Source of the DNA: Escherichia coli
GTDB taxonomy: Bacteria; Pseudomonadota; Gammaproteobacteria; Enterobacterales; Enterobacteriaceae
Reading direction: 5' to 3' (one strand)
Assembly: GCF_001677475.2 (NCBI RefSeq)
Contig: NZ_CP015229.1
Length of the DNA stretch: 64,000 nucleotides
A model generated the notes under the pieces. That model searched no databases. It was not told the DNA's origin and was given only the letters and a program-made list of their open reading frames with translations. Positions 23,766-39,486 of the stretch are shown in pieces (position 1 is the stretch's first letter; the number at the start of each line of letters is the position of its first letter). A program made the translations under genes and the position numbers.

Positions 23766-23885
23766 ATGTCTGGCAGTTCCCTACTCTCGCATGGGGAGAC
23801 CCCACACTACCATCGGCGCTACGGCGTTTCACTTCTGAGTTCGGCATGGGGTCAGGTGGGACCACCGCGCTACTGCCGCCAGACA
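23766..23885 (-). rRNA. rrfF: 5S ribosomal RNA, distal copy
   Basis: 120 nt, reverse complement of 5S sequence; two compensatory differences from rrfD. Confidence 0.93.
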
Positions 23886-23922
23886 AATTCTTTTCTAATC
23901 TGCCGAACTTTAACCTAAAAAG

Positions 23923-23998
23923 TGGTGCTGATACCCAGAGTCGAACTGGGGACCTCACCCTTACCAAGGGTGCGCTCTACCAACTGAGCCATATCAGC
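23923..23998 (-). tRNA. thrV: tRNA-Thr
   Basis: Reverse complement GCTGATATGGCTCAGTTGGTAGAGCGCACCCTTGGTAAGGGTGAGGTCCCCAGTTCGACTCTGGGTATCAGCACCA. Confidence 0.93.
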
Positions 23999-24010
23999 AC
24001 GCTAAATTTG

Positions 24011-24130
24011 ATGCCTGGCAGTTCCCTACTCTCGCATGGGGAGACCCCACACTACCATCGGCGCTACGGCGTTTCACTTCTGAGTTCGGCATGGGGTCAG
24101 GTGGGACCACCGCGCTACGGCCGCCAGGCA
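24011..24130 (-). rRNA. rrfD: 5S ribosomal RNA
   Basis: 120 nt exact match to canonical E. coli 5S as recalled. Confidence 0.95.
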
Positions 24131-24228
24131 AATTCTGTTTTATCAACACGTCATGTTCTGACCTGTCGATTTAATCTGTATCAGGCTGAAAATCTTCTCT
24201 CTATCCGCCAAAACATCTTCGGCGTTGT

Positions 24229-27132
<2,904 letters not shown>

Positions 27133-27314
27133 CACAACCCGAAGATGTTTCTTTCGATGCATCATCGTGTTGCGAAAATTTGAGAGACTCACGAACAACT
27201 TTCGTTGTTCAGTGTTTCAATTTTCAGCTTGATCCAGATTTTTAAAGAGCAAAACTTCGCAGTGAACCTTTGCAGGTACACTCTGAAGTATTTTTTATTT
27301 AATCACTACAGAGA

Positions 27315-27390
27315 TGGTGGAGCTATGCGGGATCGAACCGCAGACCTCCTGCGTGCAAAGCAGGCGCTCTCCCAGCTGAGCTATAGCCCC
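27315..27390 (-). tRNA. alaU: tRNA-Ala (spacer)
   Basis: Reverse complement GGGGCTATAGCTCAGCTGGGAGAGCGCCTGCTTTGCACGCAGGAGGTCTGCGGTTCGATCCCGCATAGCTCCACCA. Confidence 0.93.
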
Positions 27391-27432
27391 ATAACATGTA
27401 GTTAAAACCTCTTCAAATTTGCGGTGCAAATT

Positions 27433-27509
<77 letters not shown>

Positions 27510-27577
27510 GTAGAGGTTTTACTGCTCATTTTCATCAGACAATCTGTGTGAGCACTGCAAAGCACAGTTCTTTAAGG

Positions 27578-29119
<1,542 letters not shown>

Positions 29120-36873: not shown

Positions 36874-38250
36874 ATGAAAATTATCATTCTGGGTGCCGGC
36901 CAGGTTGGCGGCACACTGGCGGAAAACCTGGTTGGCGAGAACAACGATATTACTGTTGTCGATACCAACGGTGAGCGTCTGCGGACCTTACAGGATAAAT
37001 TTGACCTGCGGGTCGTGCAGGGGCATGGCTCTCATCCACGCGTATTGCGGGAGGCAGGTGCCGACGACGCCGATATGCTGGTTGCTGTAACCAGTTCAGA
37101 TGAAACCAATATGGTTGCCTGCCAGGTAGCCTACTCACTTTTCAACACCCCTAATCGCATCGCTCGTATCCGCTCACCAGACTACGTGCGCGATGCCGAT
37201 AAGCTATTTCATTCAGATGCTGTGCCGATTGATCATCTGATCGCACCAGAGCAGTTGGTTATCGATAATATTTACCGACTGATTGAGTATCCCGGCGCAT
37301 TGCAGGTGGTGAACTTCGCTGAGGGTAAAGTCAGCCTGGCTGTGGTTAAAGCCTATTATGGCGGCCCGCTGATTGGTAATGCACTTTCGACCATGCGCGA
37401 ACATATGCCACATATCGATACTCGTGTGGCAGCAATTTTCCGCCACGATCGCCCCATTCGTCCGCAAGGTTCGACCATTGTTGAAGCTGGTGATGAAGTG
37501 TTCTTTATTGCCGCTTCACAGCATATCCGCGCGGTGATGAGTGAATTACAGCGACTGGAAAAACCGTATAAGCGGATCATGCTGGTTGGTGGCGGTAATA
37601 TCGGTGCAGGGCTGGCGCGTCGTCTGGAAAAAGATTACAGCGTTAAACTCATCGAACGTAATCAGCAGCGCGCTGCTGAACTGGCGGAAAAGTTGCAGAA
37701 TACGATCGTCTTTTTTGGTGATGCGTCGGATCAAGAACTGCTGGCTGAAGAACATATCGATCAAGTTGATCTGTTTATTGCCGTCACCAACGATGACGAG
37801 GCCAATATCATGTCCGCCATGCTTGCCAAACGTATGGGTGCGAAAAAGGTGATGGTATTGATCCAGCGTCGCGCTTATGTGGATCTGGTTCAGGGGAGCG
37901 TGATCGATATTGCGATTTCACCACAACAAGCAACTATTTCTGCGTTGCTTAGCCATGTGCGAAAAGCAGATATTGTTGGTGTTTCCTCATTGCGCCGCGG
38001 CGTAGCAGAAGCTATTGAAGCCGTTGCTCACGGTGATGAAAGCACCTCACGCGTTGTCGGCAGAGTCATTGACGAAATCAAGCTACCGCCAGGAACGATT
38101 ATTGGAGCGGTGGTACGTGGAAACGACGTGATGATTGCCAATGACAATCTGCGCATTGAGCAAGGCGATCACGTAATTATGTTCCTCACAGATAAAAAGT
38201 TTATTACCGACGTCGAAAGACTGTTCCAGCCAAGTCCTTTCTTCTTGTAA
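36874..38250 (+). CDS. trkA: Potassium uptake protein TrkA
   Basis: 458 aa; two Rossmann GxGxxG motifs ([19 protein letters not shown]). Confidence 0.95.
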
Positions 38251-38379
38251 TTAATAAGGCGTCTAATGACGCCTTATTATTTCCCTTTGATTATCAAGGA
38301 TTAATTAAATTCATTCCTGGCAGGAAAATGGCTTAACATTTGTTAGACTTATGGTTGTCGGCTTCATAGGGAGAATAAC

Positions 38380-38790
38380 ATGAGCATTATTAAAGAATTT
38401 CGCGAATTTGCGATGCGCGGGAACGTGGTGGATTTGGCGGTGGGTGTCATTATCGGTGCGGCATTCGGGAAGATTGTATCTTCACTGGTTGCCGATATCA
38501 TTATGCCACCTCTGGGCTTATTAATTGGCGGGATCGACTTTAAACAATTTGCTGTCACGCTACGCGATGCGCAGGGGGATATCCCTGCTGTTGTGATGCA
38601 TTACGGTGTCTTCATTCAAAACGTCTTTGATTTTCTGATTGTGGCCTTTGCCATCTTTATGGCGATTAAGCTAATCAACAAACTGAATCGGAAAAAAGAA
38701 GAACCAGCAGCCGCACCAGCACCAACTAAGGAAGAAGTATTACTGACAGAAATTCGTGATTTGCTGAAAGAGCAGAATAACCGCTCTTAA
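38380..38790 (+). CDS. mscL: Large-conductance mechanosensitive channel
   Basis: 136 aa, [46 protein letters not shown]. Confidence 0.97.
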
Positions 38791-39005
38791 CAAACGCCTG
38801 AAAGCAGAAGGCCAGTGGTAAAAAAGTGATTTACTTTCTTGCCACTGGCCTCCCAGTTCCCCCGATTGCCATGTTTTCCTTTTCGCATGTAACTGCCTTT
38901 CCCTTTCTTATTTTTCTCTACTCGCTGTCGGAATAAGGGATCATGTAGTAATGCTTCTATCGCATTATCCTTTATCTGCCCTTTAGTATGCTGATATCGG
39001 CTCAT
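38787..39005 (-). CDS. arfA: Alternative ribosome-rescue factor A
   Basis: 72 aa, [51 protein letters not shown]...; 3' end overlaps mscL stop. Confidence 0.85.
38810..38850. other. Extended hairpin within 3' end of arfA coding region
   Basis: GGCCAGTGG...CCACTGGCC inverted repeat; consistent with the known RNase III-processed arfA stem-loop, also placed to terminate mscL. Confidence 0.65.
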
Positions 39006-39060
39006 AAAAACTCCAGTTGGTTATTTAACGGCGCGAGTGTAATCCTGTCAGTGCAAAAAA

Positions 39061-39486
39061 TCAACAGCCACTCTTAACGCCACTCGCCCCTTGTTCAAGA
39101 GCTTCAAGAATCGAGCAATAAACACTGCTATGGGCGGTCCCACAACAGGCATCGTTAAGGCGTTGCAAGGAACGCTGCATACTCTGCAACTCGGCTATCC
39201 GTGCTTCGACTTCCTGCAATCTTTCCTGCACAATGCCTTTTGACTCCTGACAGGTATGGTGTTCAGGATCGATACGGATCGACAGCAACTCGCGGATCGA
39301 CTCTAGACTGAAACCTAGTTGTCTGGCATGGCGGATAAATTTCAATCGCTGGAGATCGCTTTCGGTATACAGGCGAAACCCACCTTCAGTACGCACTTCA
39401 TGCTCCATCATCTGCTGTTTTTCGTAATAACGAATCGTGTCGGGTGTTACTTCCGCCATTTTTGCCAGCTCACCAATGCGATACAT
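39061..39486 (-). CDS. zntR: Zn(II)-responsive MerR-family regulator
   Basis: 141 aa, MYRIGELAKMAEVTPDTIRYYEKQ; C-terminal Cys cluster. Confidence 0.93.
   Translation of the reverse strand: MYRIGELAKMAEVTPDTIRYYEKQQMMEHEVRTEGGFRLYTESDLQRLKFIRHARQLGFSLESIRELLSIRIDPEHHTCQESKGIVQERLQEVEARIAELQSMQRSLQRLNDACCGTAHSSVYCSILEALEQGASGVKSGC

Follow-up and report, generated by a model that had tools for sequence, protein, structure and literature searches.

The regulatory stem-loop of arfA in Escherichia coli has been known since 2011, when the structure and its RNase III site were reportedly described by Garza-Sanchez and by Chadani. Cleavage of the arfA transcript by RNase III yields a non-stop mRNA, and ArfA builds up only when tmRNA is limiting (PMC10070815, PMC8012679, PMC8327144); the active protein is missing its last 17-18 residues (PMC8012679; PMC8327144). 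The stem-loop has been placed at arfA nt 146-206 (PMC10070815), and the same paper gives the E. coli RNase III cuts, found both in vitro and in vivo, as lying after nt 165 and after nt 189. The 54-nt 3' fragment of arfA is cut again into pieces of 24 and 30 nt (PMC10070815). The gene is also connected with its convergent neighbour mscL, the mscL-arfA pair being among the listed E. coli excludons: the stem-loop in the mscL 3' UTR is an RNase III substrate in vitro, arfA variants that contain nt 160-203 reduce mscL mRNA about two-fold, and the half-life of mscL mRNA is roughly doubled without arfA (PMC10070815). The end of the mscL 3' UTR has been put at +64 on the basis of the SEnd-seq data of Ju et al. 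2019, as given in PMC10070815, and a coupling of arfA and mscL has already been proposed by Morra et al. 2023 (PMC10070815).

The locus described here was found in the window, by which is meant the whole 64-kb stretch of E. coli DNA that was analysed. Its genes run in the order trkA-mscL-arfA-zntR-yhdN-rplQ-rpoA, which is that of the E. coli locus, and those nearest to arfA are placed as follows.

36874..38250, plus strand: trkA (ORF list).
38380..38790, plus strand: mscL coding sequence, 136 aa, with its stop TAA at 38788-38790 (ORF list; Pfam MscL profile PF01741, 160.8 bits; RefSeq annotation of matching E. coli records).
38787..39005, minus strand: arfA coding sequence, 72 codons plus stop (ORF list; Pfam ArfA profile PF03889; ArfA chains in the PDB).
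39061..39486, minus strand: zntR (ORF list).

The product of the 72-codon gene matches the ArfA profile PF03889 over residues 4-45 with 89.5 bits against a cut-off of 25.5, aligns with the ArfA chains of solved ribosome-ArfA structures in the PDB (E 1.6e-46), and has 730 homologues, every one of which carries PF03889. The convergent stop codons of arfA and mscL share 4 nt (TTAA, 38787..38790). When 38300-39100 was searched by megablast, matches annotated as mscL, arfA or zntR were found in 5,425 of 5,426 complete E. coli genomes, covering at least 80% of the query in 5,419 of them and reaching a top identity of 99.6%. Elsewhere in the window, a complete rRNA operon of rrnD-type layout occupies 23768..29119 on the minus strand (16S, tRNA-Ile(GAT), tRNA-Ala(TGC), 23S, 5S, tRNA-Thr(GGT) and a second 5S), with an Rfam StyR-44 match at 27139..27247 just upstream of the 23S, and an Rfam match of 102.7 bits to Alpha_RBS, the regulatory element at the ribosome-binding site of the alpha operon, is found at 42795..42906 on the minus strand, upstream of the rpsM-rpsK-rpsD-rpoA-rplQ cluster.

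Close to the 3' end of arfA lies a palindrome, 38810..38850, which is very probably the known cis-regulatory stem-loop of the gene. With arfA nt n taken as window position 39006 - n, the structure and the published sites occupy the following positions.

38810..38850, both strands: hairpin core, a stem of 18 bp with a single mismatch inside it, closed by a 5-nt loop at 38828-38832 (inverted-repeat search and fold; present in 79 of 79 enterobacterial loci).
38800..38860, minus strand: extended stem-loop of the arfA sense strand, equal to published arfA nt 146-206 (fold and coordinate mapping).
38840..38841, minus strand: RNase III cut 1, after arfA nt 165, between 38841 and 38840 (mapped from PMC10070815; the cleavage is the published one of K-12).
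38816..38817, minus strand: RNase III cut 2, after arfA nt 189, between 38817 and 38816 (mapped from PMC10070815; cleavage likewise as published for K-12).
38841..39005, minus strand: codons 1-55, kept on the RNase III-cut non-stop mRNA and encoding ArfA minus its last 17 residues (published cut after nt 165, mapped).
38787..38840, minus strand: counterpart of the K-12 ncRNA yrdG, 'arfA-derived small regulatory RNA', 54 nt long and covering nt 166-219 (RefSeq NC_000913.3, ncRNA 3438431-3438484; PMC10070815).

An earlier note, made from the sequence, had described a 72-codon arfA on the minus strand with a hairpin at 38810..38850 in its 3' coding portion, and this is borne out by the ORF list, the inverted-repeat search and the fold. 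In arfA numbering the 5' arm of the core is nt 156-173 and the 3' arm nt 179-196. The inverted repeat that forms it has arms at 38809-38827 and 38833-38851, 89% complementary and separated by 5 nt, and is the sole inverted repeat in 38700-38950. Its base is a perfect 9-bp stem, GGCCAGTGG...CCACTGGCC, which spans exactly 38810..38850, and a search of the 64-kb window for GGCCAGTGG-N(15-30)-CCACTGGCC gave a single hit, against 0 expected in shuffles. The region 38800..38860 folds into a stable structure on both strands (z about -5.5, 0 of 200 shuffles as stable): over the 63 nt of 38800-38862 the arfA-strand RNA reaches -32.6 kcal/mol against -15.9 +/- 3.0 kcal/mol in its shuffles (z -5.6), and the mscL-strand RNA reaches -28.1 kcal/mol (z -5.3), in neither case with any of the 200 shuffles as stable. 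The structures of the two strands differ slightly. On the arfA strand the helix extends, imperfectly, to about 26 bp by means of G-U pairs, whereas on the mscL strand these positions are A.C and do not pair; conversely, the position nt 165/187 is C.A on the arfA strand and U.G on the mscL strand. The stem-loop takes up codons 49-69 of the 72, past the end of the Pfam domain at residue 45 and before the stop codon. Among the families of Rfam 15, none was found in 38700-38950 at gathering score, and permissive thresholds brought up only generic hairpins (miRNA precursors) of 11-19 bits against thresholds of 35-120, and the arfA element appears to be absent from that release.

Comparison with the published RNase III site places the literature directly on this sequence, the stem-loop at nt 146-206 (38860..38800) and the cuts at nt 165 and 189 mapping one-to-one onto the window. 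Cut 1, as mapped, leaves the mRNA end exactly after codon 55 (Gly), which agrees with the published loss of 17-18 C-terminal residues. The further statement of the earlier note, that RNase III produces a non-stop mRNA and that truncated ArfA is made only when tmRNA is limiting, is the published account of this same locus (PMC10070815, PMC8012679, PMC8327144). Its description of the hairpin as overlapping the mscL stop needs correction, as the core begins 19 nt past that stop (38790 to 38810) and it is the arfA stop codon that overlaps it.

Between the mscL-arfA region of the window and that of K-12 MG1655, 12 positions differ, of which a single one falls in the 69-nt hairpin segment 38796-38864. 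This base, 38811, is G in the window and A in K-12, a synonymous difference in Gly65 (GGU to GGC) that turns a G-U pair into a G-C pair and makes the segment slightly stronger (-34.0 kcal/mol in the window against -31.3 kcal/mol in K-12). At 99% identity or more, 2,742 E. coli genomes among the 5,425 contain the segment as it stands in the window; in the remainder it is 1-3 bases off. At 38794, in arfA codon 71, the difference is non-synonymous, with Val71 in the window and Ala71 in K-12, and lies in the dispensable tail that is lost on processing. The present strain, whose stem differs only by the change from G-U to G-C, is inferred to behave like K-12.

Conservation was assessed in a scan of a genome collection which gave 80 Enterobacteriaceae loci, one per species, to which K-12 and the window were added; 79 loci could be parsed, L006, L075 and L077 being left out of this set where the motif-based ORF finder failed, and pairing statistics were taken over the 75 distinct sequences among the parsed loci. 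The hairpin is present in 79 of 79 loci, at the same codons and with folding energies of -29 to -41 kcal/mol. Standard pairs fill 91.7% of cells in the 75 sequences, as against 43-64% when the partners are slid by 1-3 columns. The top pair has undergone a compensatory switch between CG and UA in 28 of the 75, while variation in the lower stem consists exclusively of G-C to G-U exchanges. Since the stem is largely invariant, with 11 of the 26 pairs unchanged throughout and changes on both sides in only 5, covariation gives a modest signal. Selection shows most clearly at the third codon positions: their entropy is 0.03-0.06 bits in codons 52-55 and 63-66 of the stem, whereas 32 N-terminal codons that are conserved in amino acid reach 1.09 bits. 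Such frozen synonymous sites indicate that, where 'EASGK' and 'FFTTGL' look conserved although the tail is dispensable, it is the nucleotide sequence that is conserved. The arfA reading frame itself varies from 68 to 94 codons across the enterobacterial loci (L002-L081), overlapping mscL by anything from 0 to 65 nt, as would be expected of a stop that is rarely reached. These comparisons support the arfA hairpin as a selected RNA structure.

One feature of the stem is kept although it is not a pair. The C at nt 165 (38841) lies opposite the A at nt 187 (38819), and this position is unpaired in all 75 sequences, as C.A in 74 and U.U in one. This mismatch sits at the published first RNase III cut, and a synonymous change of GGC to GGU would close it; it may be a determinant of the position at which RNase III cuts.

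Several other records are of note in themselves. In E. coli Ec387 (L082, NZ_AP024582.1, locus 982..1679) an IS1A is inserted at the 5' end of arfA and leaves 198 nt of the gene, with neither the hairpin nor the mscL side affected, a natural arfA disruption that recalls a report of insertion-associated arfA loss from Shigella flexneri. A 383-nt contig labelled 'Arthrobacter sp. 18067' (L031, NZ_CACSJJ010000125.1) encodes an arfA one residue off that of Raoultella terrigena (L032) and is almost certainly assembly contamination. The 180-kb IncFIA/IncU conjugative plasmid pK15-KPC of Klebsiella pneumoniae (L089, NZ_MK433207.1, 96483-99689) carries an rpoA-rplQ-DUF1992-zntR-arfA-mscL-trkA block with the arfA hairpin intact, which is either the capture of a chromosomal segment or a misassembly, and several multi-megabase 'plasmid' records of the same collection are evidently chromosomes.

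The hairpin could also form transcript ends without RNase III, and the features that bear on termination on either strand are the following.

38801..38809, minus strand: U-rich tract UUCUGCUUU, directly 3' of the hairpin, a possible intrinsic-terminator tail and at the same time the 3' side of the extended stem (sequence, tail counts).
38252..38279, plus strand: canonical trkA terminator-like hairpin with U-tract, 12 bp, tail TTTCCCTTTG, starting 2 nt past the trkA stop (terminator scan).
38791..38854, plus strand: mscL 3' UTR, +1..+64, containing the same palindrome as the arfA stem-loop and ending 4 nt past the stem, with no U-tract following (PMC10070815, citing Ju et al. 2019; plus-strand fold).

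On the arfA strand, the stem may act mainly as a Rho-independent terminator within the reading frame, so that the non-stop mRNA would arise by premature termination and RNase III would be secondary. This is compatible with cleavage by RNase III, and is less likely than not. The tail that follows the stem, UUCUGCUU, has U at 5 of its 8 positions, the average over the 79 loci being 4.9, and its T-tail score of 2.53 comes close to the 2.91 of the trkA terminator, which served as the positive control for this score. Intrinsic termination has been reported for arfA of Neisseria gonorrhoeae and brfA of Bacillus subtilis (PMC8012679, PMC8327144); the homologous stem of Proteus is followed by UUUUAGUUUUUAUUUUU, and that of Neisseria arfA, located well within the ORF, has the A-run/stem/U-run build of a classic terminator. 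The U-tract at the present locus, however, is interrupted and takes part itself in the pairing of the extended stem, and a termination product would end at about nt 200-205 and not at nt 165, while the active protein is 17-18 residues short (PMC8012679). Cleavage of E. coli arfA by RNase III has moreover been published at defined sites (PMC10070815). The consensus promoter and terminator scan called the hairpin on neither strand, but it looks for an uninterrupted stem adjacent to the loop with at least three G-C pairs, and since the internal mismatch breaks the stem, its negative result is uninformative for the arfA strand. A discriminant of the d'Aubenton-Carafa type is negative even for the trkA control and is uncalibrated with modern energy parameters; only its T-tail component was kept, as a relative value.

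An unlikely alternative to the arfA stem-loop, and a slightly weaker one than termination on the arfA strand, is that the hairpin serves primarily as the intrinsic terminator of mscL, with arfA merely overlapping it. The earlier note had proposed that the structure probably terminates mscL, and part of this stands. A G+C-rich hairpin does follow the mscL stop at a short distance (a stem of -25.5 kcal/mol, 19 nt past the stop); mscL converges on arfA in 79 of 79 enterobacterial loci, with the stem starting 7-22 nt past its stop and a near-constant spacing whose mode is 19-21 nt; the reported 3' UTR end at +64 lies 4 nt beyond the stem (PMC10070815); and the consensus scan finds no other terminator-like site on the plus strand up to 39600. 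The tail of the hairpin speaks against an intrinsic terminator. No U-tract directly 3' of the stem was found on the mscL strand of the window, the tail UCCCAGUU having 3 U in 8 (mean 2.7 across the 79 loci) and a T-tail score of 1.02, and the scan made no call. The +64 end could equally be the product of processing by RNase III or of an exonuclease stopped or trimming at the stem (PMC10070815), and the stem remains plausible as an element that forms the mscL 3' end.

Comparison across species bears on which of the two genes the element serves. The extension of the stem, with its G-U pairs, is paired in 75% of cells in the arfA sense as against 46% in the antisense (75 species), and 53 of the 75 have a more stable fold in the sense than in the antisense. 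No mscL lies in the fetched flanks of the arfA genes of Pasteurella, Neisseria, Vibrio, Photobacterium and Pseudoalteromonas, yet at the same place, the 3' end of the gene, they keep a hairpin with an energy between -20 and -34 kcal/mol, which argues that the element belongs to arfA; an Aeromonas caviae locus (L088) was discarded, as the start-codon search had run into a long upstream ORF and the hairpin there is not at arfA. Taken together, the extension formed only in the sense strand, the U-rich tail on the arfA strand and the hairpins found without mscL indicate that the element is primarily that of arfA.

That the palindrome is a chance one, or a dispersed repeat of the REP type without specific function, has practically no likelihood: palindromes are common between E. 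coli genes in general, but this one is placed within a coding sequence, has no second copy in the 64-kb window with 0 expected by chance, folds with z below -5, and is kept in 79 of 79 enterobacterial species with its pairing and its frozen synonymous sites, which refutes the idea.

An element that is primarily that of arfA may still be held in place from both sides, and the invariance of the stem could stem in part from a constraint on both strands and not from arfA function alone. The palindrome would then be under joint selection from the two convergent transcripts, a co-evolved two-strand element coupling a ribosome-rescue gene with an osmotic-stress gene. This is put forward tentatively, at rather less than even probability, on three observations: the lower stem is invariant, none of 75 species showing a compensatory change in it; the distance from the mscL stop is fixed at 19-21 nt, whereas the stop of arfA moves by as much as 65 nt; and each strand has a separate mismatch, C.A at the RNase III site of arfA and U.G on the mscL strand.

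The mechanism by which the arfA stem-loop would act combines the structure, its significance, conservation and selection as determined here with what the literature on the near-identical K-12 sequence reports of cutting by RNase III, of dependence on tmRNA and of the antisense effect. The arfA mRNA would fold into the imperfect helix of about 26 bp and be cut by RNase III after nt 165 and nt 189, and transcription may additionally stop at the U-rich 3' flank of the stem. The message would thus end near codon 55, stop-less, and ribosomes would stall there. Where tmRNA-SmpB is available, the nascent ArfA would be tagged and degraded; where trans-translation is saturated or absent, untagged ArfA minus its last 17 residues would be released, recruit RF2 and rescue stalled ribosomes. 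Destruction that depends on tmRNA would make ArfA a self-limiting backup. As mscL and arfA are convergent, this DNA also gives rise to the 3' UTR of mscL; the slightly different hairpin of that transcript, with U.G in place of the C.A of arfA, may mark or protect the mscL 3' end and is, as known from K-12, the target with which the arfA-derived sRNA yrdG pairs, lowering the stability of mscL mRNA.

The element matters as a switch that silences the backup rescue factor ArfA while tmRNA works, and as a tie between arfA and mscL expression. It is already known, having been described since 2011, annotated as yrdG in the K-12 reference and linked with mscL in 2023, so the value of the present locus lies in correct annotation, the window itself adding no new biology. 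What the comparison across species contributes is a small confirmation, in the frozen synonymous sites, the conserved C.A mismatch, the constant spacing to the mscL stop and the drifting arfA stop. If joint selection from both transcripts were true, the new part would be evolutionary evidence for a dual-strand constraint, and the mismatch as a determinant of cleavage.

Among known systems, the closest is the stem-loop/yrdG element of K-12 arfA (yhdL), with which the window shares the gene, the position at nt 146-206, the neighbouring genes and the 4-nt overlap with mscL; K-12 differs in the A at 38811, which gives a G-U pair and a weaker stem, and in Ala71. The arfA gene of N. gonorrhoeae and brfA of B. 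subtilis follow the same logic, in which a hairpin before the stop codon leads to a stop-less mRNA under tmRNA control (PMC8012679, PMC8327144). Their elements work by transcription termination, however, whereas that of E. coli is cut by RNase III and has no more than an interrupted U-tract; Neisseria arfA has been reported to be without an RNase III site (PMC8327144), and neither of the two elements is adjacent to mscL. The convergent antisense pair of mscL and arfA, the 'excludon', is the same DNA regarded from the plus strand and shows no difference in sequence. Bidirectional intrinsic terminators of convergent genes (Ju et al. 2019) likewise have one hairpin common to two convergent units, but in their canonical form, A-tract/stem/U-tract, they provide a U-tract on both strands, while at this locus the U-tract is found in the arfA direction only and one of the two reading frames encloses the hairpin.
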